Notes under the pieces: generated by a model
The model's input: the letters and a program-made list of their open reading frames with translations, nothing else
Databases searched by the model: none
What the model was told of the DNA's origin: nothing
Shown: positions 6,508 to 29,588 of the stretch, one piece after another
Position numbering within the stretch: the first letter of the stretch is position 1
Layout of the letters: every line of letters begins with the position of its first letter
Made by a program: the position numbers and the translations under genes
Assembly (NCBI GenBank): GCA_041488255.1
Contig: JBGPOV010000006.1
Coordinates: 14,096-78,095, forward strand
Direction: 5' to 3'
Origin: Gammaproteobacteria bacterium
GTDB lineage: Bacteria > Pseudomonadota > Gammaproteobacteria > Burkholderiales > SHXO01
Length of the DNA: 64,000 bases

Positions 6508-6509
6508 GC

Positions 6510-10584: not shown

Positions 10585-10628
10585 CGAACACCGCACCGGT
10601 GCTACTCGCGCTGGGAAATATATGTTTG

Positions 10629-10646: not shown

Positions 10647-10689
10647 CCAGCGACAGTTCCCGTCGCAGTGCGCCAAGGCGTCAAGGACG

Positions 10690-11256: not shown

Positions 11257-11426
11257 CACGGGTGGCCTCGGTTGACCGGATCAGTGTAGCAGGCACAACA
11301 GGCGCCGACACGCCGGCCAGCGGTGTGTTTGCGGCCCACCCGGTATCGGTCGCCCGGTTAGAATGCGCTTAGCCTCGCTGCGTCCTGGTTCGAGCCCACT
11401 TCTACCACGAAGGCTGGGGAGACCAC

Positions 11427-11825: not shown

Positions 11826-11841
11826 GCGCCGGGATGTTGCG

Positions 11842-12300
11842 ATGATCGGGCTGCTCCAGCGCGTCAGCCAGGCCCGCGTCGAGGTCGAGGGCCAGATCGT
11901 CGGCGCCATCGGGCCAGGCCTCATGGTGCTGGTCTGCGCAGAACGCGGGGACGGCACAGCCGAGGCCGACCGCCTCCTGCAGCGGCTGCTCAACTACCGC
12001 GTGTTCTGCGACGCGCAAGGCAAAATGAATCTCGGCGTGCGCGAGGTCGACGGCGGTCTGTTGCTGGTACCGCAGTTCACGCTGGCGGCGGACACCCACA
12101 AGGGGAACCGCCCCAGCTTCACACCCGCTGCCCCGCCCGAGCACGGACACGCGTTGTTCGAGTACATGCTGACGCGCGCGGGTGAGCTTTATTCACGGGT
12201 TGCGGGCGGGCAATTCGGCGCGCACATGCAGGTCACGCTCACGAACGACGGGCCGGTAACGATCTGGCTTCGGGTGGACCCGCCGGGCGCCCACGGGTGA
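11842..12300 (+). CDS. dtd: D-aminoacyl-tRNA deacylase
   Basis: [37 protein letters not shown]...[21 protein letters not shown]...[18 protein letters not shown]. Confidence 0.95.
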
Positions 12301-12488
12301 GGCGGGACAGCAGTCCGTTCCATGCAATGTCGTGTGAGTTTGCGACTGCGTTTCACGTCCCGTGTCCTGGGTAAACTAAAGGTAGATGAGCCGTAGCCGA
12401 TATGATCGCGGTGTAGGGCTGGCTGTCGGGCTTGGCCGGTGTCGAGCAACCTAGGAGAACAAGCCCCATTTGGCAAGGAGGGAACATC

Positions 12489-14401: not shown

Positions 14402-17400
14402 ATGAGACTCCTAAGCCTGTTAAGCCCGTTTTCACGCACGTCTGGCGAGCGCTCGCTGGGCGCGTGGTTCCGGCGGCGCAGGCAAGCCAGTGCTGGGGTC
14501 GGCAAAAAGCTGCTCAAGGTTGCGCTCTGGGCGCTCGGCCTGATTGTGTTGTTCGCTCTGGTCGGGTTCTTCGCGGTGCCGCCCATCGCCAAGCACTACC
14601 TGGTCAAGAACCTGTCCGAGCTGCTGGGCCGGCAGGTCGCGATTCAAGAGATCAAGATCAACCCCTTCGCCCTGAGCGCGGCGGTGCGTGGTGTCTCGAT
14701 TAAGGAGCCCGCCAGCCCCGAGGTGTTTGTGTCCTTCCAGGAACTGTTCGTCGATCTGCAGGCCGAATCCCTCATCCGGCGCGGACCGATCCTGAGGGAG
14801 ATCCGGCTCGATCGCCCGTATGTTCACATCGTCCGCCGCGACGACGGCAGCTACAACTTCTCCGATCTGGTGGCGAAGTTCACCAGCGGCAGCGGGCCCG
14901 AGAAACCGGGTGCAGCCACAGGGGCGGCCAAGAAAGCCCAGCAACAGCCTCGCTTCTCGCTCAACAACATCCAGGTGCTCGCGGGCAAGGTGGTGTTCGA
15001 CGACCGGCCCAAGAAGGCCGAGCACGCGGTGACAGAGATCAATATCGCCATCCCCTTTCTCTCCAACTTGCCCTACCTGGCGGACAGCTACGTCCAGCCG
15101 TCGTTCTCGGCCAAGGTCAACGATACGCCGATCGCGCTGACCGGCCGCAGCAAGCCGTTCGCCACCCCTCCGGAGGCGCAGCTCGATCTGGACATCTACT
15201 CGCTCGATATCCCGCGCTATCTCGAGTATCTGCCGGTCAAGCTTCCGTTCAAGATCGCATCGGCGCTGCTCGAGACGCGGCTTACTGCCAGTTTCACGCT
15301 CTATCCGGACAAGCCTCCGCTGTTGGAGCTCTCCGGCAAGGCGGCGCTGGACAAGTTCGCGATGACTCAGCTCGACGGGCGCGCGTTGCTCAGCTTCGCC
15401 CGGCTCGAGGTCCCGGTGCAGTCGGCCGCCGTGTTCGCGCGCGACGTCAAGCTTGGAAATGTCGTTCTGCGCAGCCCCGAGGTGTTCGTCCGGCGCGAAC
15501 ACGACGGGACCCTTAACTGGGTGAGTGTCGTCCCGAAGCGGGAGCAGGCGGGGACCGGCTCGCAGCCGCCGCAAGAACAAGAAGCAGCGCGCGACGAAAC
15601 CGATCAGCCGATGAAGCTCCGCGTCGAGGAGGTCAGGGTCGAGAACGGTCAGATTCATTTCGCCGACGACGCCGCGCCCAAGCTGTTCAAGACCGACATC
15701 GCGGACCTGCTGGTCGTTTTCCGGAAGTTCGCGCTGCCGCAGGTCGACCCGGCCACGCTGGAGGTTTCATTCGGTACAAAGTTCGGAGAGAGCTTCAAGC
15801 ACACGAGCATGCTGTTCGCTTCGCCGCTCAATATCGACGGGAGCCTCGAAGTGAGCGGCGTGAAGCCCAAGAACTACTCGCCTTACTACGCGCCTCTGGT
15901 CCGCTTCGACGTCGAGGAAGGCACGCTGGACCTGTCCACCCGGTTTCGCGCGGCGCAGACTGGCAAAACGGTCAACGCGACGATATCCGGGCTGCAAGCC
16001 TCGCTGAGCAAGCTGCGCCTGCGCAAGCGTGGCGCAAAGGAGGATTTTCTATCTGTGCCCGCCGTCGACCTGAAGGGCGTGGACATGGACGCGGTGAAGC
16101 ACACGGTCGAGGTAGGCGAGCTTTCGAGCAAGCAAGCGAAGGTGCGTCTGGTACGCGACAAGGACGGCACGATCGATCTCACTCGGCTCACCGCGCAGGA
16201 CGAGAGCGCCACGGCGCCCGCGCCGCCGCCGACGGCGAAGCAATCAGCCGAAACGTGGCAGTGGCTGGTAAAGAAGATCGCTCTCGACCGCTACGCGGTG
16301 AGCTTCGAGGACCAGGTGCTGGCGCAGCCGGTCACTCAAGTGGTGGAGCCGATCAAGCTCAGCGTGGACAACCTGTCCAACCGCCCCGGCTCAAAGGCCA
16401 ACGTCGCCCTAGCCATGGGCGTCAACAAGACCGGCAAGGTGCTGGCGTCCGGACTGGCCGGAATCAACCCGCGGGGAGCGGATCTAAACGTCGACGTGCA
16501 GAGCATAGACCTGGTTCCACTGCAACCCTACCTCGAGGAGAAGCTCAACATCCTGATCACCAGCGGCGAGGTCATGGTGCGCGGAAGGTGGCAGCTTACG
16601 GCGCCAGAACCGGGCCCCCGGACCGTCGTCTTCAAGGGCGATGCGGGGATCAACAACTTCGCCTCCGTAGACAAGGCCACATCCCAGGATTTCCTCAAGT
16701 GGAAGTCGCTCTTCGTCGGTGGAATCGACACCACCTACCGCGCCTTCGCAGTTGGGAAGGCGATCTTCGCTCGCGAATCCGATACGGCTGCGCCCGAGGC
16801 CCCCTTCAGACTGCAGATTCAGGAGGTGGCGCTGTCCGACTTCTACTCGCGCCTGATCATTTATCCGACCGGCAGGCTGAACGTGCAGAACATCCTGGCC
16901 AGCGGCGGCACCGCGCAGTCGGCGGACGAGACAGCCACCGCCCAGGCCGAGGCCCGTGCGGCGGACCAAGCTCCGCCTCCGGCCAAGAGCGACAAGCCGG
17001 CCAAGCCGCCAGGTAAAGGCGACAAGCCAGTCAAGCCCCCGGCCGCAGAGGCCGAGGGCGCACCGGCTGTGCCGCCGCCGTCCATCGCTATCGCCAAAGT
17101 CACGCTCCAGGGCGGCAACGTGAACTTCACCGACCTGTTCGTCAAGCCGAACTACTCGGCCAACCTGACCGAGATCGGCGGTTCTGTGACGGGGCTGTCG
17201 TCGCAGTTGAACACCACCGCCGATGTGGACCTGCGCGGCCGTTTCGCTAAGACTGCGCCAGTCGAGATCAAAGGCAAGATCAATCCGCTGCTGCAGAACC
17301 CATTCCTCGACATCAAAGCCAACGTGCGCGACATCGAGCTCGGGCCCTTGACCCCCTATTCCGGGAAATACGTGGGCTATGCCATCGAGAAGGGCAAGAT

Positions 17401-18274
17401 GTCGTTCGACGTCGCCTACAAGATCGAAAACCGCAAGCTCGCGGCCAGCAACCGCCTCACGCTCGACCAGCTCACCTTCGGCGAGAAGGTCGACAGCCCC
17501 ACGGCGACCAAGCTGCCGGTGCTGTTCGCGGTGGCGCTGCTCAAAGATCGAAACGGTGTGATCGACGTAAACATGCCCATCAGCGGGTCGGTGGACGATC
17601 CCAAGTTCAGCGTCGGCGGCATCGTGCTGCATATCATCTTCAACTTGATCGAGAAGGCGATCACCGCGCCTTTCGACTTGATCGGCTCGCTGGTTGGAGG
17701 AAGCGGCGCGGAGCTCTCGTACGTGGCATTCGAGCCAGGCCAGGCGGCGATAACTCCGGCTGCCGGAGATAAGCTCACCAAGCTCCAGAAGGCGCTTTTC
17801 GAGCGTCCGGCGCTTAAACTCGACGCGAGCGGTCGCAGCGACCCGGACAAGGATCGCGAAGGGCTGCGCCGGCATCGCTTCGACCAGCAGATGAAGGCGC
17901 AGAAACTCAAGGACCTGGTGAAGAAGGGCTCGTCGGCGGCCTCGGTGGACGAGGTTAAGATCGAGCCCCAAGAGTACGAGACCTACCTGAAGCGCGCCTA
18001 CAAGGAAGCGAAGTTTCCGAAGCCGCGCAACCTGATCGGTATCCAGAAGGACCTGCCGAACGAGGAAATGGAAAAACTCATGCTGACCAACACCGCGGTC
18101 ACCGACGATGATCTCATCCAGCTTGCCAACCAGCGCGCGCAGGCCACCAAGAACTTCATCACCCGTGGGGACCAAGTGCCGGTGGACCGCGTGTTCCTCC
18201 TGGCGCCCAAGCTGGAGGCCGCCAAGGGGGAGGACAAGCTCCCCGGTAGCCGCGTCGACTTTTCGCTCAAGTGA
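14402..18274 (+). CDS. DUF748 domain / AsmA-TamB-like giant envelope protein
   Basis: 1290 aa with an N-terminal anchor KLLKVALWALGLIVLFALVGFFAVPPIAKHYL and repeated beta-rich DUF748-type segments (IQEIKINPFALSAAVRGVSIKEP; NIQVLAGKVVFDD). An internal Pro/Lys-rich linker is present, and the C-terminal region carries VDVNMPISGSVDDPKFSVGGIV. Confidence 0.8.
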   Translation: MRLLSLLSPFSRTSGERSLGAWFRRRRQASAGVGKKLLKVALWALGLIVLFALVGFFAVPPIAKHYLVKNLSELLGRQVAIQEIKINPFALSAAVRGVSIKEPASPEVFVSFQELFVDLQAESLIRRGPILREIRLDRPYVHIVRRDDGSYNFSDLVAKFTSGSGPEKPGAATGAAKKAQQQPRFSLNNIQVLAGKVVFDDRPKKAEHAVTEINIAIPFLSNLPYLADSYVQPSFSAKVNDTPIALTGRSKPFATPPEAQLDLDIYSLDIPRYLEYLPVKLPFKIASALLETRLTASFTLYPDKPPLLELSGKAALDKFAMTQLDGRALLSFARLEVPVQSAAVFARDVKLGNVVLRSPEVFVRREHDGTLNWVSVVPKREQAGTGSQPPQEQEAARDETDQPMKLRVEEVRVENGQIHFADDAAPKLFKTDIADLLVVFRKFALPQVDPATLEVSFGTKFGESFKHTSMLFASPLNIDGSLEVSGVKPKNYSPYYAPLVRFDVEEGTLDLSTRFRAAQTGKTVNATISGLQASLSKLRLRKRGAKEDFLSVPAVDLKGVDMDAVKHTVEVGELSSKQAKVRLVRDKDGTIDLTRLTAQDESATAPAPPPTAKQSAETWQWLVKKIALDRYAVSFEDQVLAQPVTQVVEPIKLSVDNLSNRPGSKANVALAMGVNKTGKVLASGLAGINPRGADLNVDVQSIDLVPLQPYLEEKLNILITSGEVMVRGRWQLTAPEPGPRTVVFKGDAGINNFASVDKATSQDFLKWKSLFVGGIDTTYRAFAVGKAIFARESDTAAPEAPFRLQIQEVALSDFYSRLIIYPTGRLNVQNILASGGTAQSADETATAQAEARAADQAPPPAKSDKPAKPPGKGDKPVKPPAAEAEGAPAVPPPSIAIAKVTLQGGNVNFTDLFVKPNYSANLTEIGGSVTGLSSQLNTTADVDLRGRFAKTAPVEIKGKINPLLQNPFLDIKANVRDIELGPLTPYSGKYVGYAIEKGKMSFDVAYKIENRKLAASNRLTLDQLTFGEKVDSPTATKLPVLFAVALLKDRNGVIDVNMPISGSVDDPKFSVGGIVLHIIFNLIEKAITAPFDLIGSLVGGSGAELSYVAFEPGQAAITPAAGDKLTKLQKALFERPALKLDASGRSDPDKDREGLRRHRFDQQMKAQKLKDLVKKGSSAASVDEVKIEPQEYETYLKRAYKEAKFPKPRNLIGIQKDLPNEEMEKLMLTNTAVTDDDLIQLANQRAQATKNFITRGDQVPVDRVFLLAPKLEAAKGEDKLPGSRVDFSLK

Positions 18275-18285
18275 GGTAAGCCGAA

Positions 18286-18579
18286 ATGAAACAGACCATC
18301 GCATTTCTGATCACCAGCCTGGCGCTGGCAGCCCATGCGGCGGACCAGAAGAAGCCCGAGCCGGCGCCGGCGCCGGCCACAAAGGACAACTTCTTCGAGC
18401 GCGCCGCTAAGGCAATCGGGAAAGACGCCAAGAGCGCGGTGCACCAGGCCGGTGAGGCATACGGCAAAGCCGGCAAGGACATCGGGCACGGCGCCAGCAA
18501 GACGGTCAAAGACGTCGGGCACGCGATGAAGGAGAGTGCCGACAAGACCGGCAAGGAAGTCAAGGAGACGGTCAAGTAG
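18286..18579 (+). CDS. small secreted protein with five 11-residue Lys/Gly-rich repeats
   Basis: ATG lies 11 nt after the DUF748 stop, with a GAGG SD. Signal peptide MKQTIAFLITSLALAAHA/AD. The 11-mers are AAKAIGKDAKS, AVHQAGEAYGK, AGKDIGHGASK, TVKDVGHAMKE and SADKTGKEVKE. Confidence 0.6.
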   Translation: MKQTIAFLITSLALAAHAADQKKPEPAPAPATKDNFFERAAKAIGKDAKSAVHQAGEAYGKAGKDIGHGASKTVKDVGHAMKESADKTGKEVKETVK

Positions 18580-18864
18580 CTCGTGGGGCCACCTCTCTGT
18601 CCTCTGGGGGCTAGCTCGGCAACACAGGGTCCGAGCAGCGCGCGGCAGCGATGCTCCGATCAAGCGGTCACCGAGTCAGTTACGGTGGAGTTTGCCTCCC
18701 CTAAACGTGTCGGTAGGATGCGACGACTGGACTCTCTCCATGGGCCGGCCGTCACAGGTGCTCGACGAGCGCGTTCACCCCCCCTGTCGCCGTTCGCCCA
18801 GGGCTGCATGACAGCCGGAAAGAATGGGCGCAAGATATCGGAGATTTTGCGGGGGACGCCGCGT

Positions 18865-19902
18865 ATGAGAGTTCTGCTGGCCACGCATGCGGGTCTGTTT
18901 GCGGACGCGTTTAGCGGATCGCTGACCAAGCTCGCGAGCCGGGTCCAAGTGGAACGCTGCGACCCGGAGCGCGTGGAGGAGCCCGACCCCGAGGCGGGCT
19001 TCGCTCTGGTGCTCATCGACGCCGACGCGGCCCCGGGCCGCGCTGCCAGCCTGGTGCGCAGCTGCCGCGACCGCCTCCCCGGGGTGCCGGTGGTAGCGCT
19101 CGCCAGCGGTCTAGACGAGAGCGTTATAGCCGGGATCATGAACGCCGGCGCCCAGGCCTACCTTCCCAAGAGCTACCGCGAGGCGCAGGCGCTTGGGGTT
19201 CTACAGATGGTGCTCGGCGGCGCGAGCCATCGACCGCATGCTGACCGCGGCCACCTCGCAGCAGATGGTCGGACGCCCGCATTCGTGGCGGACGAGGGCA
19301 CGAGCCGCCGGCTTGGCCCGAATCCGTACAGCCTTACCGAGCGGGAACTGCAGGTGCTCACCCAGGTGTGCGAGGGGCGGTCCAACCTAAACGTCGCCAA
19401 GCGCCTGGGCATCACGGAAGGAACGGTCAAGATCCACCTCAGCAACTCCTATAAGAAACTGGGGGTGGAAAACCGCACGCAGGCCATCCGCATCGTCGAG
19501 CGTCTGGACCATGTGCAGAACATGGCGCTGGAGGAGGCCGAGCAAGGTCTGTCGCTGCGCGACTGGCTGCTGCCCCACATGTCGGACGAGTCCCATCACA
19601 AGGGGGAGATCCTGTTTCGAAAAGGAGATCCGGCACGCGCGCTGTACTACATCCAGCAGGGCAAGGTTGCACTGCCGGAGATCGGTAAGCAGATGGCCGA
19701 GGGGGCGTTGTTCGGGGAGATCGGCATCTTCGCGCCCGAGCATTCCCGCACCTGCACAGCGCGCTGTGAGACCGACGCCCGCCTCTTCTGCCTGACCGCG
19801 GAGCGGGCGAAACGCCTGTACTTCGAAAACCCTCAGTTCGCCTATCACGTGATGCAACTGATCGCGCGACATCTGCTCGAAGATCAGTCCCGCCGGCACT
19901 GA
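18865..19902 (+). CDS. transcriptional regulator: atypical receiver + LuxR/GerE HTH + C-terminal cyclic-nucleotide-binding domain
   Basis: In-frame ATG at 18865 gives 345 aa. The REC-like region is MRVLLATHAG...VLIDADA...VVALAS...YLPK; the acidic pair is replaced by THA. LuxR HTH: LTERELQVLTQVCEGRSNLNVAKRLGITEGTVKIHLSNSYKKLGV. cNMP domain: GEILFRKGD...LFGEIGIF...SRTCTARCETDARLF. Confidence 0.8.
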   Translation: MRVLLATHAGLFADAFSGSLTKLASRVQVERCDPERVEEPDPEAGFALVLIDADAAPGRAASLVRSCRDRLPGVPVVALASGLDESVIAGIMNAGAQAYLPKSYREAQALGVLQMVLGGASHRPHADRGHLAADGRTPAFVADEGTSRRLGPNPYSLTERELQVLTQVCEGRSNLNVAKRLGITEGTVKIHLSNSYKKLGVENRTQAIRIVERLDHVQNMALEEAEQGLSLRDWLLPHMSDESHHKGEILFRKGDPARALYYIQQGKVALPEIGKQMAEGALFGEIGIFAPEHSRTCTARCETDARLFCLTAERAKRLYFENPQFAYHVMQLIARHLLEDQSRRH

Positions 19903-19938
19903 CGCGCCCCGACCGCGCGGCGCTCAGCCGCATCCGCC

Positions 19939-22317
19939 ATGAACCCGCGTGCCTTTCTAGGGGCGTCCTGGCTGGCCTGGCGGCATGCCCTCATCGCCGG
20001 TCTAGTGCTGGCGATCCTCGGCGCCGGGCTAACCATGACGCCCGCGCTTTGGCCGCTGCAGGAGAGTTTCGACCTGTGGCTCCTGTTCAAGCTGCGCGGC
20101 CCCAAGGCCCCCCCTGATGACATCGTGCTGGTGACCATCGACCAGCAGTCGTCCGAACGCATCACGCTGCCCATCGACCCCGAGGCGCGCAACCGCTGCC
20201 TCGATCTCAGGGTCGGAGATGCGCCTGCCTCGCACGAACGGCTGCCTCCGCCGCACCTGGTGATGCGCTGGCCCCGCTGTGTGCACGCACTGGCCGTCCA
20301 GGCGCTGGCTGCGGCCGGGGCGCGCGTCATTGCACTGGACATCTCTTTCCGGCCTCTGGTGCCGGGCGGTTCGGAGAAGGGTCTGCGGCTGAGTGAAGAC
20401 CAGGACCGCGCCTTGGCCGATGCGATCGAATCGGCCGGCAACGTGCTGATCGCGCAATGGCTCGATCCCGTCCGGATGAAGCGGGAGCCCATAGCGGGAG
20501 ACGCACGCGCCGAGCCGGCTGAACGGCCGGCCGCGGTGAGCCCGCTGATCGAGTCCGCCGCCCTGGGCACCGCGCCCTTGCGTTTGGCGTATGGGCAGGC
20601 GGGCCGGGTCAATGGGTTCGCCGCCTTCAGCCAGGAAGACGGGCCGATGTCGAGCATGCCGGCCCTGCTGCTCCAACGCTCCGTCGCGGAGGTGCACTCG
20701 GACCTCGTGCGCCTGATAGCCCAGGCCAGTCCTGAAGACGCCGAGCTGCTGCCGCGCACGCCGGAAGCGCTCGACCAGCGCCGGCCTTTGCAGGCCACTT
20801 CGCTGCTGTTGCGGCATCTGGTTCGATCGCAGCCGAGCCTGGCGGACGCTTTGCACGATTCCCTGGAAGGCCGCGACGGCGCGGGACTGCCTGCCCGGCG
20901 CCGCGCCGCCCTGCGGGCGCTGGTGGATCTGTATGCCGGCGACGCAGTTCGTTATCTGAACTTCTACGGCCAACCCGGGACGTTCCCTAGCGTGAGCTAC
21001 GCGGACGTCCTGAAGCTCGCATCGCGCAGCGGCGCACAACTTTCTCAGGAGCTGCGCGGCAAAACCGTGATCGTCGGTTACGTGGACTTCACCCCCGCAC
21101 AACGCGACGACCACTACCCGAGCGTCTACACCACCAGCGACGGGGTCAAGCTCAGCGGCAGCGAGATCCTGGCAACAGCGGTCGCCAACCTTGCGTCGGG
21201 CACCAGCGTGAAGCTCTTACCGCTTGCCTCGCGAACGCTGGTAGCCGTCGGTTTCGGCCTGGCGCTGGCTTTGTTGCTCCTGGTCCCGCCTCCTCTGCGC
21301 GGTCTTATCACCGGGTTCGCGCTGTGCGCTGCCTACCTCGGGCTCGCGCTGCTGCGGTTCCGGCTCGCATCGTTATGGCTACCGGTGCTCGTTCCGGTCA
21401 CGATCCAGGCACCGGCCGGCATCTTGTATGCGGCGGCCTATCACTACCGCGAGATGCGGCGCAAGCGCGATGAGCTGCGCAGGCTGTTCGGCAAGTTCGT
21501 TCCGGACCTGGTGATCGAAGGACTGCTGGAGAACCGAGCCCGGCTGGACACAGTGAACGAGCCGGTTTACGGGGTGTGCCTGGCCACCGACGCGGAGCGC
21601 TTTACAGCGCTGGCCGAAGGCATGCATCCGTCGCAGCTGGCGCGGTTTCTGAACCGTTACTTCGAGGCCGTGTTCCCGCCCATCACCGAAAAGGAAGGGG
21701 CGGTGGTCGACTTGATCGGCGATGCGGTCCTGGCGTTGTGGAGCGGACGGGAGGCCGACCGCAGCCTACATGTGAAGGCGTGCGAGGCGGCGCTCGAGCT
21801 GATGTCGGCGGTCGACCGGTTCAACGCGGCTTCGCCTACGCTCCGGCTCCCGACCCGCATCGGGATCTCGGGTGGCGAAGTCGCAACGAGCCCGATGGGC
21901 GCGGTCAACCACTTCGAGTTCCGCCCGGTGGGGGACGCCGTGGTGACTTCGGTTCGCCTGCAGGAGCTAAACAAGCTATTGGGCACGCGCATCCTGGCAT
22001 CGGAGCCGATGATCCGCGGGCTCGACGCGCTGCTGGTGCGAGACTTGGGGGTGTTTCAGCTGAGGGGCAAGAGCCTGCCCACCCACGTTTTCGAGATCGC
22101 AGGCGAGCGCGAGAGCGCCAGCGCCTATGTTATGCAGCTGTGCCTGGAGTTCGCGCTGGCCTTGGACGCGCTGCGTGGGGGCCGGCACGAAGCCGCCCTG
22201 GAGCGCTTCAGGGCGACTCACGACCGCTATCCTCAAGACGGGCCCACCGCTTTCTACGTGCACTGGCTGTCCTCCCACCCGCTGTGGGGCGGCGGCGCGA
22301 TCCGACAGTCCCCCTGA
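19939..22317 (+). CDS. CHASE2 sensor domain-containing class III nucleotidyl cyclase
   Basis: 792 aa. N-terminal TM, then a CHASE2-type periplasmic region (LLFKLRGPKAPPDDIVLVTIDQQS...VIALDISF...NFYG...VIVGY). Three TM helices follow (aa ~430-510). The cyclase homology domain reads VCLATDAERFTALAE...VVDLIGDAVLALW...RIGISGGEV...GDAVVTSVRLQE. Confidence 0.85.
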   Translation: MNPRAFLGASWLAWRHALIAGLVLAILGAGLTMTPALWPLQESFDLWLLFKLRGPKAPPDDIVLVTIDQQSSERITLPIDPEARNRCLDLRVGDAPASHERLPPPHLVMRWPRCVHALAVQALAAAGARVIALDISFRPLVPGGSEKGLRLSEDQDRALADAIESAGNVLIAQWLDPVRMKREPIAGDARAEPAERPAAVSPLIESAALGTAPLRLAYGQAGRVNGFAAFSQEDGPMSSMPALLLQRSVAEVHSDLVRLIAQASPEDAELLPRTPEALDQRRPLQATSLLLRHLVRSQPSLADALHDSLEGRDGAGLPARRRAALRALVDLYAGDAVRYLNFYGQPGTFPSVSYADVLKLASRSGAQLSQELRGKTVIVGYVDFTPAQRDDHYPSVYTTSDGVKLSGSEILATAVANLASGTSVKLLPLASRTLVAVGFGLALALLLLVPPPLRGLITGFALCAAYLGLALLRFRLASLWLPVLVPVTIQAPAGILYAAAYHYREMRRKRDELRRLFGKFVPDLVIEGLLENRARLDTVNEPVYGVCLATDAERFTALAEGMHPSQLARFLNRYFEAVFPPITEKEGAVVDLIGDAVLALWSGREADRSLHVKACEAALELMSAVDRFNAASPTLRLPTRIGISGGEVATSPMGAVNHFEFRPVGDAVVTSVRLQELNKLLGTRILASEPMIRGLDALLVRDLGVFQLRGKSLPTHVFEIAGERESASAYVMQLCLEFALALDALRGGRHEAALERFRATHDRYPQDGPTAFYVHWLSSHPLWGGGAIRQSP

Positions 22318-22340
22318 CACTGCCCTGTGGACCGCTCCGG

Positions 22341-22391
22341 TATGACGAAGCCCGCGGATTGCATACCTATGACGAAAGTTAGCTTGCATAC
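22341..22391. repeat. two tandem copies of TATGACGAA-N(8-10)-TTGCATAC in an AT-rich spacer
   Basis: Copies at 22341-22366 and 22368-22391. The second TTGCAT could act as a -35 (17 nt to TTAGAT), about 90 nt upstream of the ATG at 22483. Confidence 0.55.
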
Positions 22392-22482
22392 AAGAAAAAA
22401 AGGGGTTTAGATGGGATTTGCTTTCGGTCGTGATGCTTAGCCTTTAACGGGCCGGTAAGGCTCGGCGGGGAGGGGGTTAAGG

Positions 22483-25400
22483 ATGTTGCGGTCGGGCGTC
22501 TCGAGCGCTTCGGCCTTGGCGCTGGGGTGCGTTGTCCCAGCGCTCGTGGTGGTGTGCGCAACGCCCACGCGCGCGACGGCTGCCGACGCGCCTCCCACAT
22601 GCACGCCCGTGGTGGCGCGGATCGTCTCCATGCAAGGCATCGTCGAAGTGCGCCGCTCCGGGCAGCAGAACTGGTCTGCGGTCACCCGTTTGGATACGCC
22701 CGTGTGCCAGGGGGACCTGCTGCACGCCGGACCGCGCAGCCGTGCCGCGCTGGTCATTCTTCCCGAGAAGTTCGTCCGGCTCGACCAGAACTCCACGGTG
22801 AGCATCAGCATTGCGGGCGAGGAGACCATCGTCGAGTTCTTCCAGGACGAGACCACGCCCAAGGACGCCTGCGGTGCGGGCTATTTCATCACCCGCTTCC
22901 CGCGCAAGTTCAAGGTCCGCACGCCGTTCGTGAATGCGGCAGTGGAAGGCACCGAGTTCCTCGTCAGCATGAGCTGCACCGCGACGTCGCTGGCGGTGTT
23001 CGAAGGCAAGGTCAGCGCCGAGACGCTGCTCGCCAATGTGCAGCGCTTCATCCTCAGCAGCGGCGAAGCCATCTCCGCTGGCCCCGGCGAGCCGCCAGCG
23101 ATCAAGGTGCTGATCAAGCCGGTCGATGCGGTGCAGTGGGCGCTGTACTACCCCCCGCTGAGCGAACCCGGGCCAGGAGTGGGGCCGGATCAGCAGTGCG
23201 ACCAGCCCGCGCCAGACGAGAGTAGCCGCTGCCTCATAGTGCGCGCCGAGCAACGCTTGCGCGTCGGACGGGTGGACGAAGCCGAGGCCGACATCGACGT
23301 GTCGCTTAAGTTGATTCACGACAACAGCGATGCGGAGGCCCTACTCTCGGTCATCAGCGTGGTCAAGAATGACAAGCAAAGGGCTTTGGCATTGGCCCAG
23401 CACGCCACCCAACTCGGCCCGGTAAATCCGCGCGCCTGGATCGCGCTGTCCTACACGCAGCAGGCAAGTTTCAAGTTGGAGGATGCCCTTACCAGCGCCG
23501 AGCGCGCCGCCGAGCTAGAGCCACGCAGTTCCATCGCGCTAGCGCGCGTGGCCGAGCTCATGCTGTCGCTTGGCAAGGTCCGCTCCGCCGAGCGCGCTGC
23601 CCAGGCGGCCGTGGACGCCAACGCTGATGACAGTCGGGCGCATACGATCCTGGGCTTTGTGCACTTGGCGGCGATCGACATCAAGAAAGCCAAGGCCGAC
23701 TTCGAGGCGGCCATCGCGCGCGATTCGAGCGATCCTCTTCCCCGCTTGGGGCTGGGGCTGGCCATTATCCGCAAGGGCAACCTAACGGCGGGCCGCGAGC
23801 AAATCGAGATCGCCGTCGCCCTGGACCCGACAAACTCGCTGCTCCGCAGCTATATGGGCAAGGCCTACTACGAGGAGGACACCAAGGCGCGCGACCGGCT
23901 CGCCTCCACGCAGTTCGGCTTAGCCAAGCAGCTCGATCCTAAGGACCCTACGCCCTGGTTCTACGACGCGATCTTAAAGCAGACGCAGAACCGCTCCGTC
24001 GAGGCCCTCGAAGAGTTCCAGAAGTCCATCGAGCTCAACGACAACAGAGCGGTGTACAGATCGAAACTGCTGGTGGATGAAGATCGCGCGACGCGCGAGA
24101 CGAACTTGGCGCAGATCTACCAGGACCTCGGCTTCAATCAACCGGCCCAGATCGAGGCGTCGAAATCTGTCTCGTTTGATCCCTCCAATTACTCTGCGCA
24201 CAGATTTCTGTCCGAAGCCTCCAGCCCCGTCGAGCGGCAGGAAATCACTCGTGTGAGCGAACTTCTAAAAGCCCAGCTGCTGCAGCCCTTGAACCTGAAT
24301 CCTCCTCAACCCCAGGCCGCTTTCGCGCAGCTCGGAATCCTTCCCAGCGCGACTCAATTTGCGCCCGGTTACAACGAGTTCAGCCCCCTATTCGAAAGCA
24401 ACGGTTTGCATCTGTTCGCGACCGCCCTCGCAGGCAACGAAGAAACCCTTGGCGATGAGGTCGTGGTGTCAGGTTTGGTCGACCGACTCTCCCTGAGCCT
24501 GGGACAGTTCCACTACCAGACTCAGGGTTTTCGACCGAATAACGACCTTACGAACAACATATATGACGCTTTCGCCCAGATCGCCCTCACACCCAGCATC
24601 AACCTCCAAGCAGAGTACAGGACTCGTGATGCGGAGGCCGGCGACAGAAGCCTGACCGGCGATCCGACCATATCCGACCCGGGATTCCGGCGGAACTTGC
24701 AGCACGACGTCGCTCGGCTAGGTGCGCGCGTCGACCTCAGCGAGCGGTCTACAGTCCTATTCTCGGGAATTCACGCCAAGAGAGAGGAGAGTCTGTTCTT
24801 TCCCGATTTCTTTGGCATGCAGCTCACCAGCAGCGGGACAACCGAGACGGACCAGGGCGAAGCGCAGTGGATCTACAAGGGCTTCGGGGGCTCACTGGTC
24901 ACGGGCCTGGGAGCGTACGACGGCAACGCGCAACAGCAGGACCAGTTTTCTCCGGGCCCCTGCCCGTTCCCGCCATGCGAGCTAACCTTCGGCACAAGGG
25001 GACAGAACGCGTACCTCTTGTGGAGCTTCCAGCCCGCGCCCGCTATGTTGTTGGTATTGGGAGGCTCTTACGATCACGTCAACGAAGCGAACCTGGACGT
25101 TGAGAAACTCAGCCCGATGGCGGGCTTCTATGTCCGTCCACTCAGCTGGCTGTCTTTTCGCATGGCTGCTTTCCAGTCCGTGAAACCGGCGCTGGTTGCC
25201 GACCAGACGATCAGGCCAACACAGATCCTGGGGTTCAGCCTGTATTCCGATGATTTCAACGGAACGGTGGCAAACGGCTTTGCCATCGCTGGAGATGCGC
25301 GCCTTGGCTCTGACGCGCTGGCGGGCGTCGAGGCCTCCCGGCGTTCACTGTCCATCCCTCTGGATGCAGTTGGCTCCCCATTCTTCCTGAATTCGACAGA

Positions 25401-25848
25401 GAGCGCCTTGGGCGCGTATCTCGCATGGACGCCGCGGCGTGACGTTGCAGTCTCGCTCAGATGGCTCCGAGAGAATTCGACCCGGCCGGCAGCGGATGTG
25501 GCCGACGTGGGACTGCCCTCGCAAGTGACCAATGATTTGTTTCCCCTGAGCGTGCGTTTTTTCACCGCTGGCGGTTTCATTGCAGGCGCCACGGCAACGT
25601 ATGTCAAGCAATACGTGGCGAGCACATCTTTCCCTCCAACCAATCAGGCGAACAGCGACTTTTCTTTGGTCGACCTCTTTCTCGGCTATCGATTGCCGGA
25701 GCGTCGTGGCCTGATATCCCTAACTGTCAACAACCTCTTTGATAAGGAGTTCTCTTTCTATGATTTGAATTTTCTGACAACGGAACCGTTGAATCCGCGC
25801 TTTACCCCCGCGAGGACCTTCTTCGGGCGAATCGCGCTGTACTTCTGA
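22483..25848 (+). CDS. FecR domain + TPR repeats + C-terminal outer-membrane beta-barrel fusion protein
   Basis: 1121 aa.
- Signal peptide: ...VVVCATPTRATA/AD.
- FecR-like region: IVSMQGIVEVRRSGQQNWSAV...GDLLHAGPRSRAALVI...VRTPFVNAAVEGTEFLV.
- TPR region, aa ~250-560: AWIALSYTQQASFKLEDALTSAERAAELEP..., LGLGLAIIRKGNLTAGREQIEIAVALDP.
- Beta-rich C-terminal ~550 aa ending GRIALYF (terminal Phe, an OMP signature). Confidence 0.75.
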   Translation: MLRSGVSSASALALGCVVPALVVVCATPTRATAADAPPTCTPVVARIVSMQGIVEVRRSGQQNWSAVTRLDTPVCQGDLLHAGPRSRAALVILPEKFVRLDQNSTVSISIAGEETIVEFFQDETTPKDACGAGYFITRFPRKFKVRTPFVNAAVEGTEFLVSMSCTATSLAVFEGKVSAETLLANVQRFILSSGEAISAGPGEPPAIKVLIKPVDAVQWALYYPPLSEPGPGVGPDQQCDQPAPDESSRCLIVRAEQRLRVGRVDEAEADIDVSLKLIHDNSDAEALLSVISVVKNDKQRALALAQHATQLGPVNPRAWIALSYTQQASFKLEDALTSAERAAELEPRSSIALARVAELMLSLGKVRSAERAAQAAVDANADDSRAHTILGFVHLAAIDIKKAKADFEAAIARDSSDPLPRLGLGLAIIRKGNLTAGREQIEIAVALDPTNSLLRSYMGKAYYEEDTKARDRLASTQFGLAKQLDPKDPTPWFYDAILKQTQNRSVEALEEFQKSIELNDNRAVYRSKLLVDEDRATRETNLAQIYQDLGFNQPAQIEASKSVSFDPSNYSAHRFLSEASSPVERQEITRVSELLKAQLLQPLNLNPPQPQAAFAQLGILPSATQFAPGYNEFSPLFESNGLHLFATALAGNEETLGDEVVVSGLVDRLSLSLGQFHYQTQGFRPNNDLTNNIYDAFAQIALTPSINLQAEYRTRDAEAGDRSLTGDPTISDPGFRRNLQHDVARLGARVDLSERSTVLFSGIHAKREESLFFPDFFGMQLTSSGTTETDQGEAQWIYKGFGGSLVTGLGAYDGNAQQQDQFSPGPCPFPPCELTFGTRGQNAYLLWSFQPAPAMLLVLGGSYDHVNEANLDVEKLSPMAGFYVRPLSWLSFRMAAFQSVKPALVADQTIRPTQILGFSLYSDDFNGTVANGFAIAGDARLGSDALAGVEASRRSLSIPLDAVGSPFFLNSTESALGAYLAWTPRRDVAVSLRWLRENSTRPAADVADVGLPSQVTNDLFPLSVRFFTAGGFIAGATATYVKQYVASTSFPPTNQANSDFSLVDLFLGYRLPERRGLISLTVNNLFDKEFSFYDLNFLTTEPLNPRFTPARTFFGRIALYF

Positions 25849-25886
25849 AGACGTTCATCAACCACACCAGCAACAGGAGAGCAACC

Positions 25887-26198
25887 ATGGTATCACTACC
25901 CGGCGATATGTCACCAATCAATAAGGACGTCATCGACTACCTTCAGGTCTTATTCGATAGCAACGGTGGAACTAACCCCTCGAACGTGCGCACGATAGTG
26001 TTCTTCTTCGACGATAAGGATCCCCAATGCTATCACCGACCGGGGATGCCAACCGCGAAAAAAATCCCAGGCGGAAACATCAATGAGCAGGCAAAACAGG
26101 TTTCCCGACTAGACGAGGTGACGGTTGTGGTATTCCAGAAAAACCCCACGTGCTTTTGGAAGGTGATTAACGGGTCACATCGTCTCTACTGTGGCTAG
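25887..26198 (+). CDS. hypothetical small protein (103 aa, 3 Cys, no signal peptide)
   Basis: ATG lies 7 nt after AGGAGA and 38 nt after the barrel-protein stop. Composition is normal for a protein. The C-terminus is NPTCFWKVINGSHRLYCG. G+C is lower than the flanks. I recognise no family. Confidence 0.5.
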   Translation: MVSLPGDMSPINKDVIDYLQVLFDSNGGTNPSNVRTIVFFFDDKDPQCYHRPGMPTAKKIPGGNINEQAKQVSRLDEVTVVVFQKNPTCFWKVINGSHRLYCG

Positions 26199-26221
26199 CT
26201 AGGATCTCGGCTACTTTAGGT

Positions 26222-26277
26222 GAGCGCTGACCAATTTCACCCCTCTCGAGCCTGCAGACGCAGTGAGGTCAGCGCTC
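26222..26277. repeat. 11-bp perfect inverted repeat GAGCGCTGACC-N34-GGTCAGCGCTC
   Basis: Read directly in the 164-nt spacer between the 103-aa ORF and the DyP gene. Confidence 0.6.
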
Positions 26278-26362
26278 GATGCGTACTCAGCAAGAGCTAC
26301 CCCAAGGTGACCACACGCAGTCCGACGCTTGGGCCGTGTCGCAAAGCGGCCAAGGAGGAAAC

Positions 26363-27820
26363 ATGGCTGGTATACTAGACACCCCCCTCGATCTCGACAA
26401 ACTTTCTCCTGCTCAGTGGGCATTGCTCGAAGACCTTCAAGGCAACATTCTCAAAGGCCACGGGAGAGATCACGCGGCCCATATTTTCCTGCACTTTGAC
26501 AGTGCGGATGGCGCGAAGGAGTGCCTGAAGCGGTTGCGAGGGCTGATCACTTCTGCAGGCGACCAGGTTCGTGTCTGGCAACGACTGCGCTCATCAAAAG
26601 CAGCAACACAAGCGGACCCTGGCTTACACACCATCTCCGGACAACTGTTCTTGAGCCTCGCCCTGTCCTGCAAGGGCTACGAAAAGCTTGGGATTAACCC
26701 GGATTCGATTCCCCAGGATCCGGCGTTCAAAGCTGGCATGCGGGGCCGACCCAGCTTACAGGATCCCCCCCCAGAACAGTGGACCATGCTAAAAAAAGAC
26801 GGCGGCAAAGCGCTTGAGGAGATCCACGCCCTGGTAATTGTGTCTTGCGACACACCTGAGGTCACTAAGCTCTACAAAGACATGATCGTGCGGCGATCGG
26901 CTCCGCACGCACGAGAGTTGGGCACAGAAACTGGAAGAGCGCTTCGAAACGCGGCGAGGCAACGGATCGAGCACTTTGGTTACGTGGATGGCATGAGCTC
27001 GCCAGTGTTCGTGCTCCAAGATCTGGAGGGGAGTCAAAACACCTGGAATCCGCTCTCACCTCCAAGCGTGGTTTTGGAAAGATGTCACGGCGGGGACGAG
27101 AACAGCTTCGGGAGTTACTTGGTGTTCCGTAAGCTGGAGCAGAATCCGCGCATGTTTGCCGGGCTGGAGATCGCCCTTGGCAAAGCGGCGGGAAAGACCT
27201 CCGATGAGGCTGGTGCTATGGTGATTGGCCGGAAGAAGGATGGTACGTCCTTGACGCTCTCCTCCGCGACGCCGTCAAATCCCCCCTCGAACGACTTCGA
27301 TTATCGTAACGACACTCATGGGAACGTATGTCCCTTCAATGCTCACGCGAGAAAACTGAACCCTCGGGGAGCGACGATTCCCAGCGATCCCCAACAAGGG
27401 GTGGGCGGGGAACGTCAGCATTGGATTGTCCGTCGTGGGATCCCATACGGCGCTCGCAAGGATGACCCCACCAAGCCTGCATCACCTGAATCACTCAGAG
27501 AACGGCCGGAGTGGGGGCAGGTGGGCCTTCTTTTCATGTGCTATCAGCGGAGCATCGAAACCCAATTCGAGGAACTTCAAAGCCACTGGGCGAACGATGC
27601 CTGGTTCCCGCTCGAACCAACCGAGAAGCTCAAGGGTGTCGATCCGCTGATTGGATCGCGAGACACGCGTGAGATGGAGAACGGGAAGCCCTTACTACAG
27701 CAGCCCTTGTGGCCATCCAGGTCGGGAAACATGGTACCGTTTGAGATTCCTCAATGCGTCAGGCTGCAGGGAGGAGAGTATTTTTTCGTTCCCAGCATTT
27801 CGTTCATCCGAAAACTCTAG
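26363..27820 (+). CDS. DyP-type (dye-decolorizing) heme peroxidase, long form
   Basis: ATG at 26363 follows AAGGAGGAAAC and gives 485 aa. DyP hallmarks: LQGNILKGHGR, GxxDG motif FGYVDGMSSP, proximal-His region CPFNAHARKLNPR, RRGIPYG, GLLFMCYQRSIETQFEELQ, and a C-terminal GGEYFFVPS. No Tat or Sec signal. Confidence 0.8.
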   Translation: MAGILDTPLDLDKLSPAQWALLEDLQGNILKGHGRDHAAHIFLHFDSADGAKECLKRLRGLITSAGDQVRVWQRLRSSKAATQADPGLHTISGQLFLSLALSCKGYEKLGINPDSIPQDPAFKAGMRGRPSLQDPPPEQWTMLKKDGGKALEEIHALVIVSCDTPEVTKLYKDMIVRRSAPHARELGTETGRALRNAARQRIEHFGYVDGMSSPVFVLQDLEGSQNTWNPLSPPSVVLERCHGGDENSFGSYLVFRKLEQNPRMFAGLEIALGKAAGKTSDEAGAMVIGRKKDGTSLTLSSATPSNPPSNDFDYRNDTHGNVCPFNAHARKLNPRGATIPSDPQQGVGGERQHWIVRRGIPYGARKDDPTKPASPESLRERPEWGQVGLLFMCYQRSIETQFEELQSHWANDAWFPLEPTEKLKGVDPLIGSRDTREMENGKPLLQQPLWPSRSGNMVPFEIPQCVRLQGGEYFFVPSISFIRKL

Positions 27821-28102
27821 TCTTTGAGCCACCGCTTAACGGTGAGACGATCCGTGCTTAGCTAGAGTGCAGAGCAGCCTCGGGCTAGCGCGTGCGTTGC
27901 GCTGGGCTCGATGCACCCATTCATGCGCGAACAGCTGCCCAAGGCGCGGGTCCCCGGAGGATGCTCGCAGGATGGGCCACAGAATTGCAGGCCCTGACGC
28001 ACACCGAAGAGTTATTCGGCGATGCACACAGCATCGGCCAGCTTTCGTAGCGGGCAGGGTCGTGGGTCGCATCGCCTCGGCTCCTGGGAAGCCGCTCCAG
28101 CC

Positions 28103-29356
28103 CTATGCCCGACGCGCGACGAGCACAGCGTTGGAGCCACCGAACGCAAAGGAGTTGGAAAGCGCGTACTCTAGCTGCGGCGCTTGCCGTCCCGCGCACG
28201 GCACGCAATCGAGGTCGCACTCGGGGTCCAGCATGGTCAGATGCGCGGTGGGCGGCAGGCGCCGCTTTTTCAGCGCCAGCACTGTGATCGCGAATTCGAG
28301 CGCTCCGGCCGCGCCGACCAAGTGTCCATGCATCGATTTCGTCCCGCTCACCGCCAGACGGCGAGCGTGGCCGCCGAACGTCTGCTTGATCGCATCGATC
28401 TCGATCTTGTCCCCCGCGAGCGTGGCAGTGGCGTGCGCGTTGATATAGCCAACCGCTTCCGGCTGAAGCCCGGCGTCTGCGAGCGCCGCGCGCATGGCCC
28501 GCACCTGGCCGTCGACCGCCGGCTGCGTGAGGTTGTGCGCGTCGCTAGACGCACCGTACCCTACCACCTCGGCAAGGGGCTGCGCGCCGCGCGAGCGCAT
28601 CGCCTCCTGCGCCTCCATCACGATCGCCACCGAACCCTCCCCGAGCACGAAACCGGTGCGGTCTTTGCTGAACGGACGGCTGGATGCCGCCGCGCCGTCG
28701 GCATGTTCCTTCGCGAGCACGCCGAGTCCGTCCCAGGCCGTGATAGCTCCGTCGTTCAGCATCGACTCGGTACCGCCCGCCAGGGCGCAATCCAGGTAGC
28801 CATCGCGGATCGCGCGAAACGCTTCGCCGATTGCCACGCCGGACGATGAACAAGCGATCGAGTAGGTGATCGAGGGGCCGCGGATCCCATAGCGCATGGA
28901 GATGTGGCTAGCCGGCGCATTCGTCATGATGAGAGGAACAGTGGACGGCTTAGCCTTGCGGGATTGTCGCTGGTAGTAGAGACGGTAGGCCTCCTGGATC
29001 GCGCTCGAGCCCCCAAGTCCGCAGCCGATGTAGATGCCAGCGGCGGCCGGGCCCCGGTCCTCCACGAGCAGCTTCGCGCCCGCCAGCGCGCGATGGGCGG
29101 CGATGACCGCCATCTGCGAGACCCGGTCCATGACAAAGAGCTGGGCCTTGGGGATCACGCCGGACGGATCGCACTCGGCCTGCGCAAGTAGAACATCGGC
29201 CCCGAACTCCGCAGTCCCGCTGCGGACCTTGCGGATCGCAGACTCGCCGGCGTACAGCCGTTCGAACACGCCATCGGGGTCGCCGCCATGCGGCGAGACG
29301 AGCCCGAGGCCGGTGACGAATACGCGTCGGCGGGCCGCAGTGGCTGGTTCAGGCAC
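28103..29356 (-). CDS. beta-ketoacyl-ACP synthase (KAS I/II, FabF/FabB-like paralogue)
   Basis: VFVTGLGLVSPHG, active-site Cys in YSIACSSSGVAIGEA, INAHATATLAGD, GTKSMHGHLVGAAGALE, NSFAFGGSNAVLV. The start is uncertain. GTG at 29356 overlaps the ACP stop (GTGCCTGA) and the track start is GTG at 29398. Confidence 0.9.
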   Translation of the reverse strand: MPEPATAARRRVFVTGLGLVSPHGGDPDGVFERLYAGESAIRKVRSGTAEFGADVLLAQAECDPSGVIPKAQLFVMDRVSQMAVIAAHRALAGAKLLVEDRGPAAAGIYIGCGLGGSSAIQEAYRLYYQRQSRKAKPSTVPLIMTNAPASHISMRYGIRGPSITYSIACSSSGVAIGEAFRAIRDGYLDCALAGGTESMLNDGAITAWDGLGVLAKEHADGAAASSRPFSKDRTGFVLGEGSVAIVMEAQEAMRSRGAQPLAEVVGYGASSDAHNLTQPAVDGQVRAMRAALADAGLQPEAVGYINAHATATLAGDKIEIDAIKQTFGGHARRLAVSGTKSMHGHLVGAAGALEFAITVLALKKRRLPPTAHLTMLDPECDLDCVPCAGRQAPQLEYALSNSFAFGGSNAVLVARRA

Positions 29357-29588
29357 CTTTGGTTTGGATGAGTTCGTCGACCAGTGCCGCCCCGTCACCC
29401 AGCGTAGTGAAGTTCGCGCGCTCGTCCGGGATGTCGATTCCGTACTTGTCCGCGACGTCGAACATCAGCTCGGCGGCCGATAGGGAATCGAGCCCGAGCT
29501 CAGCAAGCGTCGCCTCTGGCCGGATCGTGTCCGGCTTGACGTCGTGCCTCTCAATGAGCACTTGCTTGATGTAATCGTACGAACTCAT
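29349..29588 (-). CDS. acyl carrier protein (phosphopantetheine-binding), dedicated
   Basis: MSSYDYIKQVLIERHDVKPDTIRPEATLAELGLDSLSAAELMFDVADKYGIDIP contains the DSL serine motif. An alternative ATG lies 9 nt upstream at 29597. Confidence 0.85.
   Translation of the reverse strand: MSSYDYIKQVLIERHDVKPDTIRPEATLAELGLDSLSAAELMFDVADKYGIDIPDERANFTTLGDGAALVDELIQTKGA

Follow-up and report, generated by a model that had tools for sequence, protein, structure and literature searches.

What does a protein do that joins a FecR domain, a helical TPR region, and a C-terminal outer membrane barrel in a single chain? The question is raised by a 1121-residue protein, here called the target, that is encoded in a 64,000-nucleotide (nt) stretch of DNA to which we refer throughout as the window (positions 14,096 to 78,095 of contig JBGPOV010000006.1, assembly GCA_041488255.1, deposited as a Gammaproteobacteria bacterium and placed in the order Burkholderiales). 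An initial annotation, made from the letters of the sequence, recognized the three parts, likened the TPR region and barrel to the exopolysaccharide export porins PgaA and BcsC, and knew of no characterized protein with this three-part arrangement. Our analysis bears out the architecture and leads elsewhere on the other two points: the barrel is unlike those of the export porins, and NsrA of Sinorhizobium meliloti has the same arrangement and is homologous to the target from end to end (PMC7529298, PMC13001267). The target is a new and distant member of a known, thinly studied kind of protein, and is neither an exporter nor an unprecedented architecture. We consider it probable that it is an NsrA-family outer membrane sensor or co-receptor that works with a CHASE2 cyclase encoded just upstream, a gene that the initial annotation had missed.

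Domain Architecture and Predicted Structure

The open reading frame (ORF) begins and ends exactly where the initial annotation placed it (table 1), and a GGAGG-type ribosome-binding site lies ~9 nt 5' of its ATG. Loci that encode relatives are designated here by L numbers. The N-terminus of the target, MLRSGVSSAS, is also present in L004, a locus from a Burkholderiales metagenome-assembled genome (MAG) that is the closest genome relative of the window locus. A database search retrieved more than 100 full-length homologs of ~1100 residues at 42–61% identity, and therefore the target is a real gene rather than a chance ORF. These homologs come mostly from MAGs of Burkholderiales and other Betaproteobacteria and carry no more specific name than "FecR domain-containing" or "TPR repeat protein"; weak precomputed matches to PF00593, the TonB-dependent receptor barrel, are recorded for many of them.

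Read by eye, the N-terminus has the form of a Sec signal peptide, with a basic N-region, a hydrophobic core, and an A-T-A/A site after residue 33. The region that follows matches the FecR model, as had been claimed (PF04773, residues 80–177, 34.4 bits against a curated cutoff of 24, E = 3e-8), and several Pfam TPR models match residues ~308–523 (TPR_2, E = 2e-11), where the target holds about 8 repeats. In a 44-sequence alignment, cysteines are conserved at C40 and C75 and, just past the FecR domain, at C239 and C250, which fits a periplasmic location. The FecR/TPR arm is the best-conserved part of the protein, with a majority fraction of 0.65–0.72 (TPR mean 0.72) compared with 0.45 for the barrel, and the linker region also contains near-invariant residues (S592, E593, L595, Q596, P602, and P607). 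Pfam gave no match over residues ~580–1121, and NCBIfam returned only sub-threshold, TPR-driven matches to the target.

An AlphaFold2 model built on the 44-sequence alignment (A1) has a mean predicted local distance difference test score (pLDDT) of 84.9 and a predicted template modeling score (pTM) of 0.79. Following a disordered N-terminus (residues 1–37), the model contains a beta-sandwich (43–209), 17–18 helices (244–600), a low-confidence linker segment (621–640, pLDDT 57–59), and a barrel of 22 beta-strands (641–1120, strands assigned by DSSP) for which the pLDDT is mostly above 90. The beta-rich C-terminal part described in the initial annotation is thus present as an outer membrane barrel in the model, together with the terminal RIALYF, although its size is ~480 residues rather than ~550. 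Counted from a periplasmic N-terminus, the connections between strands measure 2–5 residues on the periplasmic side and 2–28 on the outer side. Short periplasmic turns and longer outer loops are the usual pattern of outer membrane proteins, and the pattern supports, as a prediction, the outer membrane location that had been suggested. Two of the outer loops, L2 (residues 681–688) and L7 (residues 901–928), match the TPR region in conservation.

In a Foldseek comparison with the PDB, the best barrel matches are all TonB-dependent transporters (among them PqqU, 9c4o, E = 9e-16; FhuE; FpvA; FecA; and BtuB), with E values of 1e-13 to 9e-16 and TM-scores normalized to the target of 0.46–0.60. The target shares with these proteins a 22-strand barrel with long strands and a C-terminal ending of the NLFDK...F type; it differs from them in lacking a plug, a TonB box, and an STN domain, in carrying FecR and TPR regions N-terminally, and in an identity of 10–16%. 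For the plug domain (PF07715) there is no Pfam match in the target at E up to 0.01, and the stretch from the TPR region to strand 1 measures only ~40–60 residues. The helical part of the target is matched in Foldseek by the TPR region of OGT, and sequence matches in the PDB also include consensus TPR proteins. Because a profile search of PDB sequences returned TPR proteins only, the combination of FecR, TPR, and barrel is represented by no solved structure.

A FecR domain and a transporter-like barrel in one chain could point to fused Fec-type cell-surface signaling, in which a TonB-dependent transducer joined to a FecR regulator would control an extracytoplasmic function (ECF) sigma factor, and some databases do label family members "TonB-dependent receptor." Such a fusion is difficult to reconcile with the absence of plug and STN domains and the little room available for them. 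Furthermore, FecR lies directly behind the signal peptide, the target has neither a cytoplasmic anti-sigma domain nor a transmembrane helix, and no ECF sigma factor, TonB, or ExbBD is encoded among the four genes called on each side of the target, upstream and downstream. We regard this explanation as very improbable.

The likeness to PgaA and BcsC, in turn, is confined to a layout in which a C-terminal outer membrane barrel comes after TPR repeats in the periplasm. The barrels of PgaA and BcsC have 16 strands. Their genes lie in synthase operons, whereas the target has 22 strands, a FecR domain, and a cyclase partner, and neither protein is among the 50 Foldseek PDB matches listed. We therefore reject routine membership in this exporter family, for which the TIGR03939 model scores 18.3 bits, over the TPR region only, against a cutoff of 366.65. 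The PgaA/BcsC type of operon is rejected as well: among the neighboring genes, Pfam and NCBIfam identify no polysaccharide synthase or glycosyltransferase, in agreement with what the initial annotation had said of the surroundings.

Homology to NsrA and Pairing with a CHASE2 Cyclase

In S. meliloti, signal perception through the CHASE2 adenylate cyclase CyaK requires NsrA, an outer membrane beta-barrel protein whose barrel spans residues 600–1200 (PMC7529298, PMC13001267, PMC10463352); CyaK is SMb20776 (PMC5498481). A tblastn search of a plasmid collection with the full target protein gave no matches at E 1e-5; only with the N-terminal half and a threshold relaxed to E 1 did weak matches on rhizobial megaplasmids lead to NsrA homologs. 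In Rhizobium sp. BG4, the gene for a 1213-residue "FecR domain-containing protein" abuts a CHASE2 cyclase gene. Its ortholog on pSymB of S. meliloti 2011 is a 1219-residue ORF that is followed directly by a gene for a 649-residue CHASE2 plus cyclase protein, and in both rhizobial proteins a FecR domain comes first, followed by TPR repeats and a long C-terminal region. BLASTP aligns the target with the BG4 protein collinearly over residues 16–568 (25% identity, E = 7e-13), and hhalign aligns the family profile with the pSymB ORF over 963 columns (99.7%, E = 9.4e-26, positions 56–1106 against residues 59–1203). The barrel columns alone match the two rhizobial barrels (hhalign 98.0%, E = 3e-13; hmmsearch 58 bits), and the conserved loop-7 motif falls inside this barrel-only alignment. 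The size, barrel range, and CyaK neighborhood of the pSymB ORF fit NsrA. From its position upstream of CyaK and its size, we infer that this ORF is NsrA (SMb20775).

The target and NsrA share, in the same order, a signal peptide, a FecR domain, a TPR region, and a C-terminal barrel of ~500 residues, and both genes adjoin a gene for a CHASE2 class III cyclase. The two differ in that their identity is only ~22–25%, with NsrA in the Alphaproteobacteria and the target in the Betaproteobacteria. They differ also in the reader of the signal, which is the CRP-type Clr in S. meliloti and is likely a LuxR-type cyclic nucleoside monophosphate (cNMP)-binding regulator in the window, and in that the target has no symbiosis context and its partner cyclase has unusual catalytic residues. 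As an observation on the rhizobial locus itself, a gene for a "Pycsar system effector family protein" (L001, Rhizobium sp. BG4 pRPC2, 6205–6744) lies divergently and directly upstream of the NsrA-homolog/CHASE2 pair.

Independent reports from other systems also pair FecR-domain proteins with CHASE2 sensors. CHASE2 cyclases of Campylobacterota cluster with a FecR-domain outer membrane protein and a separate TPR protein (PMC9239204), a split version of the same three functions in which, unlike in the target, the TPR part is a gene of its own. In Burkholderia, a LysM-FecR protein pairs with a CHASE2 histidine kinase in a BiofilmReg operon of the PA4035 type (PMC5192318). The gene for a FecR-domain envelope protein stands beside a CHASE2 sensor gene there as it does in the window, but the Burkholderia system has a LysM/peptidoglycan anchor and a histidine kinase output, whereas the target has an outer membrane barrel and a cyclase.

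The pairing with a cyclase extends across the family. We compared 79 genome loci encoding relatives, with at least 582 candidate stretches confirmed; the loci include Nitrosomonas europaea, Nitrosospira, Desulfosarcina, Nitrospirota, Acidobacteriota, and Gammaproteobacteria. For 72 of the 79, either a cyclase match was present or enough upstream sequence was available to judge. Of these 72 informative loci, 58 have a CHASE2-cyclase homolog upstream in the same orientation, at a median gap of ~250 nt, and another 4 have one elsewhere in the flank. In the window, the cyclase gene is on the strand of the target and ends 165 nt before it starts. In 9 of 40 family loci, the product of the first sizeable downstream gene is a cNMP-binding regulator of the CRP type. 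According to these gene-context counts, the conserved unit combines a CHASE2 cyclase and a cNMP-binding transcription factor with an outer membrane protein of the FecR/TPR/barrel type. Furthermore, a second target-like copy stands beside a single CHASE2 cyclase in 13 of the 79 loci. Twelve of these copies are full-length tandem paralogs, ~40–46% identical to the query (L005, L007, L008, L026, L031, L033, L034, L038, L042, L051, L054, and L074), and in L028 the second copy is only a fragment at a contig end. Several outer membrane sensors may feed one cyclase at such loci.

A barrel-only HMMER scan, which covered 1.84 billion cluster representatives, gave 2137 matches with E values no higher than 1e-3, of which 752 reach 1e-30 or lower. 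The listed matches are mostly ~1080–1150 residues long with the barrel at the C-terminus, and even the best has a barrel identity of just 42%. Judged by these counts and lengths, the three-part fusion is the usual form in this large family, which has hardly been studied. A FecR-only search aimed at split versions found only proteins of 119–370 residues, many of them from short contigs or labeled partial. One such match, P0265, lies on the long contig of L089 (contig_30871, 731–12326), in which the DUF748, cyclase, and target-homolog genes are each in several pieces. Since broken genes of this kind are typical of frameshift errors, the short "FecR-only" proteins in the databases are not readable as natural split forms. 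In two Nitrosospira loci, L024 and L047 (12060–15109, minus strand), family copies stand without an adjacent CHASE2 gene, and a TIR-domain plus TPR protein (~770 residues) is encoded ~1–1.5 kb downstream of the family copy on the opposite strand.

A Mosaic Junction Ahead of the Barrel

The target is a mosaic. In a blastn comparison, the nucleotide identity between the window and L004 is ~82% over 14739–24083, a stretch that spans the DUF748, regulator, and cyclase genes and the target up to residue ~534, and it is 87% from 28094; between 24083 and 28094 blastn detects no nucleotide similarity between the two. The block ends at the 3' end of the minus-strand ketosynthase (KS) gene, and the GC content drops from ~0.65 to 0.50–0.60 across 23800–27800. 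At the protein level, the identity to L004 is 84–98% up to residue 500 and 22–44% over the barrel. Nucleotide similarity to L083, L084, and L085 stops at 24100, 24095, and 24141, respectively, and the junction lies just past the codons for a near-invariant RSxLLxDED motif. Among seven close relatives, the identity of every pair falls from 80–90% to ~50% at residues ~520–540 and to 20–40% beyond residue ~600, the periplasmic halves of close relatives being 80–86% identical and the barrels about 30%.

The two parts also disagree about who is related to whom. Across 946 family pairs, identity in the periplasmic part and identity in the barrel are uncorrelated (Spearman 0.07), and the nearest neighbor is the same by both parts in only 8 of 44 sequences. 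The barrel of the window is closest (42–43%) to those of members that have the most distant N-terminal halves (47–55%). Taken together, the shared sharp junction, the GC shift, and the discordant relatives indicate that gradual fast divergence of the barrel is no explanation.

The genes behind the barrel vary with it. The small protein orf103 belongs to a family of ~100-residue proteins that has no Pfam match and is marked by the motifs IDYLQ, GxNPxxVR, and RLDxVT and by a C-terminal TC...C with a conserved Cys pair. Homologs lie directly downstream of the three barrels most similar to that of the window (L087:4443–4754, L086:10465–10764, and two copies in L088:10511–10801 and 10880–11239), and the sole other match among 88 loci is a weak one in L074 (E = 4.5e-4). 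Compared with the homolog behind the most similar barrel, that of P0079 in L087, orf103 is 28% identical; with a 136-residue ORF of L004 it has no BLAST similarity, and the small ORFs differ between barrel types. The large enzyme behind the barrel likewise follows the type. It is a DyP-type peroxidase in the window and in L087, the two being 37% identical (E = 1e-86), an animal-type heme peroxidase (An_peroxidase) in L004:11792–13576, S8 peptidases in L085:6899–9064 and 9983–12271, and an unknown 707-residue protein in L084:12195–14318. The same position behind the barrel is taken by two unrelated heme peroxidases. A peroxidase does not always follow the barrel, however, an idea that we considered and rejected: the downstream gene encodes a peroxidase in 1 of 40 loci, compared with 9 for CRP-type regulators and 3 for S8 peptidases.

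Judging from these comparisons, the barrel seems to have come from a different lineage in one piece with orf103 and the DyP gene. The barrel may be a specificity module that is exchanged by recombination, and such a cassette-like barrel may be new. The assembly that contains L084 has a further family copy in L083 (JBFONC010007818.1; 2305–6507 and 7259–10618). Over the N-terminal half and the intergenic region before it, this copy is 82% nucleotide-identical to the window, with similarity beginning at the window equivalent of 22340. Its barrel is different, it lacks a cyclase, and it is immediately preceded by two tyrosine recombinase (Phage_integrase) genes. This copy may be a mobile or spare cassette.

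That orf103 and the DyP gene travel with one barrel type, the An_peroxidase gene with another, and the S8 peptidase genes with a third might alternatively be expected of a gated import or export channel, a category that would include a PgaA/BcsC-like exporter. The plug-less barrel would then move a substrate, either a peptide or a product tied to orf103, the peroxidase, or the protease, and the FecR/TPR arm would serve as a dock or chaperone; the lack of a plug and the TPR-then-barrel layout of PgaA and BcsC suit this explanation. We nevertheless consider it improbable. The strand number, the transporter-like matches, and the TIGR03939 score described above separate the target from PgaA and BcsC, and the operon holds no synthase, glycosyltransferase, or ABC/secretion gene (Pfam, NCBIfam). 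Additionally, orf103 and the DyP protein have no signal peptide and are therefore unlikely cargo, and the partner that is conserved across phyla is a sensor cyclase.

A Proposed Signaling Mechanism

By analogy with NsrA, the most likely role of the target would be in signal-dependent activation of the cyclase. We propose that the protein is exported by the Sec system, that its C-terminal 22-strand, plug-less, transporter-like barrel would insert in the outer membrane, and that the FecR beta-sandwich and the TPR solenoid of ~8 repeats would hang into the periplasm. A surface cue, whether bound by the barrel loops or lumen or admitted through the barrel, would alter the contact of the FecR/TPR arm with the periplasmic CHASE2 domain of the inner membrane cyclase. 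The resulting cyclic nucleotide would be read by the co-encoded cNMP-binding LuxR-type regulator, the probable readout of the cyclase signal, and transcription would change. The barrel would act as the specificity module, exchanged along with small accessory genes by recombination at the conserved junction (residues ~526–550).

A protein of this shape might instead report on the envelope itself. As an envelope-state sensor or tether with no specific ligand, it would couple outer membrane integrity, lipid or lipopolysaccharide (LPS) condition, or membrane spacing to the CHASE2 cyclase. A periplasm-spanning bridge could well be built from an outer membrane anchor with a TPR solenoid and a FecR domain at its far end, and envelope genes flank the unit in this clade, with a DUF748/AsmA-like gene upstream and lipid A-type acyltransferase and KS genes downstream. 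This synteny is confined to few loci, however, and the diversity and cassette swapping of the barrel are better explained by ligand specificity or by selection on the surface-exposed part. Moreover, NsrA responds to an added peptidic signal (PMC7529298). We therefore think it rather unlikely that the target senses the state of the envelope.

Several points weigh against the proposal of a cyclase-coupled sensor or co-receptor. The first concerns the cyclase of the window, whose catalytic domain (residues ~540–720) keeps both metal-binding Asp residues and the Arg. The substrate Lys is changed to Asp (VVDLIGD) and the catalytic Asn to Val (GDAVVTSVR); the Asn to Val change is common to the window and L004 cyclases and is absent in L005 and in most other family-linked cyclases, and CyaK carries canonical catalytic residues. 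Because of these two changes, the product and activity level of the window cyclase are uncertain, and the enzyme may have little activity or form another nucleotide. Second, 10 of the 72 informative loci are without a nearby CHASE2 gene, and no alternative sensor was found in these 10 loci. Third, to assign the function of NsrA to the target at the identity given above would be an extrapolation across classes, and the gene order is reversed, the cyclase gene lying downstream of nsrA in S. meliloti and upstream of the target in the window. The identification of the pSymB ORF also draws on position, in that we take nsrA to be the gene immediately upstream of cyaK, as Garnerone et al. (2018, J Bacteriol 200:e00019-18) reportedly describe it. 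Finally, we know of no experiment anywhere that shows FecR or TPR touching CHASE2, and in the model the lumen of the 22-strand barrel may be open, closed by loops L2 and L7, or filled by a partner.

The cyclase-coupled sensor can be extended to a more general hypothesis, which we put forward tentatively and hold to be possible but doubtful. Proteins of this family would be plug-and-play trans-envelope receptors, in which recombination at a fixed junction joins interchangeable barrel cassettes, each with its own small protein and enzyme, to a conserved periplasmic FecR/TPR transducer that fits its CHASE2 cyclase. One cyclic-nucleotide pathway would in this manner be re-targeted to different surface cues, with some spare cassettes perhaps kept beside tyrosine recombinase genes.

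Neighboring Genes and Other Features of the Locus

Table 1. Coordinates of the target, its parts, and neighboring features in the window
Feature	Position	Strand	Basis or remark
DUF748/AsmA-like protein, 1290 residues	14402-18274		Just upstream of regulator gene
Regulator with LuxR/GerE helix-turn-helix and C-terminal cNMP-binding domain, start codon uncertain	18583..19902	+	GerE E 4e-18, cNMP_binding E 7e-15
CHASE2 sensor fused to class III nucleotide cyclase, 792 residues, inner membrane	19939..22317	+	Pfam CHASE2 E 7e-25, Guanylate_cyc E 3e-8
Target ORF, 1121 residues	22483..25848	+	ATG start
Predicted Sec signal peptide, residues 1-33	22483..22581	+	Read from sequence; low pLDDT, low conservation
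FecR-type beta-sandwich, residues 43-209, predicted periplasmic	22609..23109	+	Pfam PF04773 and AlphaFold2 strands
TPR/helical-repeat region, residues 244-600, predicted periplasmic	23212..24282	+	Pfam TPR, helices in model
Linker, residues 601-640	24283..24402	+	Between conserved helix SELLxAQLLQPLN and barrel strand 1; too short for plug
Predicted 22-strand outer membrane beta-barrel, residues 641-1121 plus stop, TonB-dependent-transporter-like, plug-less	24403..25848	+	DSSP, Foldseek; ends RIALYF
Putative swapped lower-GC cassette: last TPR helices, linker, barrel, orf103, DyP gene	24084..28093		blastn, GC
orf103, small protein	25887..26198	+	Ribosome-binding site AGGAGA 6 nt upstream; no signal peptide
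DyP-type heme peroxidase, 513 residues, no signal peptide	26279..27820	+	Pfam DyP_N, Dyp_perox_C; TIGR01413 E 5e-28
KS (FabF-like) gene	28103-29398	minus	

The surroundings of the target are in part shared with its closer relatives. The gene for the cNMP-binding LuxR-type regulator is syntenic in L004, L005, L055, L061, and L084, and that for the DUF748/AsmA-like protein in L004, L005, L055, and L061. Downstream of the target, Pfam and NCBIfam identify lipid A-type acyltransferase and KS genes. A 193-residue ORF on the plus strand (27867–28448) runs into the 3' end of the KS gene, which is on the minus strand; the ORF has a sub-threshold Pfam match only and is probably not a gene.

In the intergenic region, a 21-nt block at 22423–22443 on the plus strand (TTCGGTCGTSATGCTTARCCT / TTCGGTCGTGATGCTTAGCCT) lies ~40–60 nt upstream of the ATG of the target and is invariant in the window, in L004, and in the more distant L055. 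It may be a promoter or operator. Just upstream of the block is a direct repeat, TTGCATAC...TTGCATAC, of which the L004 copy has one mismatch in the first repeat. In a promoter and terminator scan, sites were no commoner than expected by chance.

Significance

Signaling from the cell surface to the inner membrane without TonB is poorly understood in Gram-negative bacteria, and no cue is known for CHASE2 domains. This kind of protein has been studied only in NsrA, and there only through genetics in one symbiont. Environmental Betaproteobacteria commonly carry the module described here, the nitrifiers Nitrosomonas and Nitrosospira among them, and it occurs also in Desulfobacteria, Nitrospirota, and Acidobacteriota. 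The value of the target lies in this breadth of the family, in a confident structural picture of a FecR domain and TPR region joined to a plug-less 22-strand barrel, and in the cassette-like character of that barrel. If barrels are indeed swapped while the transducer is retained, the family would constitute a natural experiment, useful in the search for ligands and in tests of signal transfer across the periplasm.

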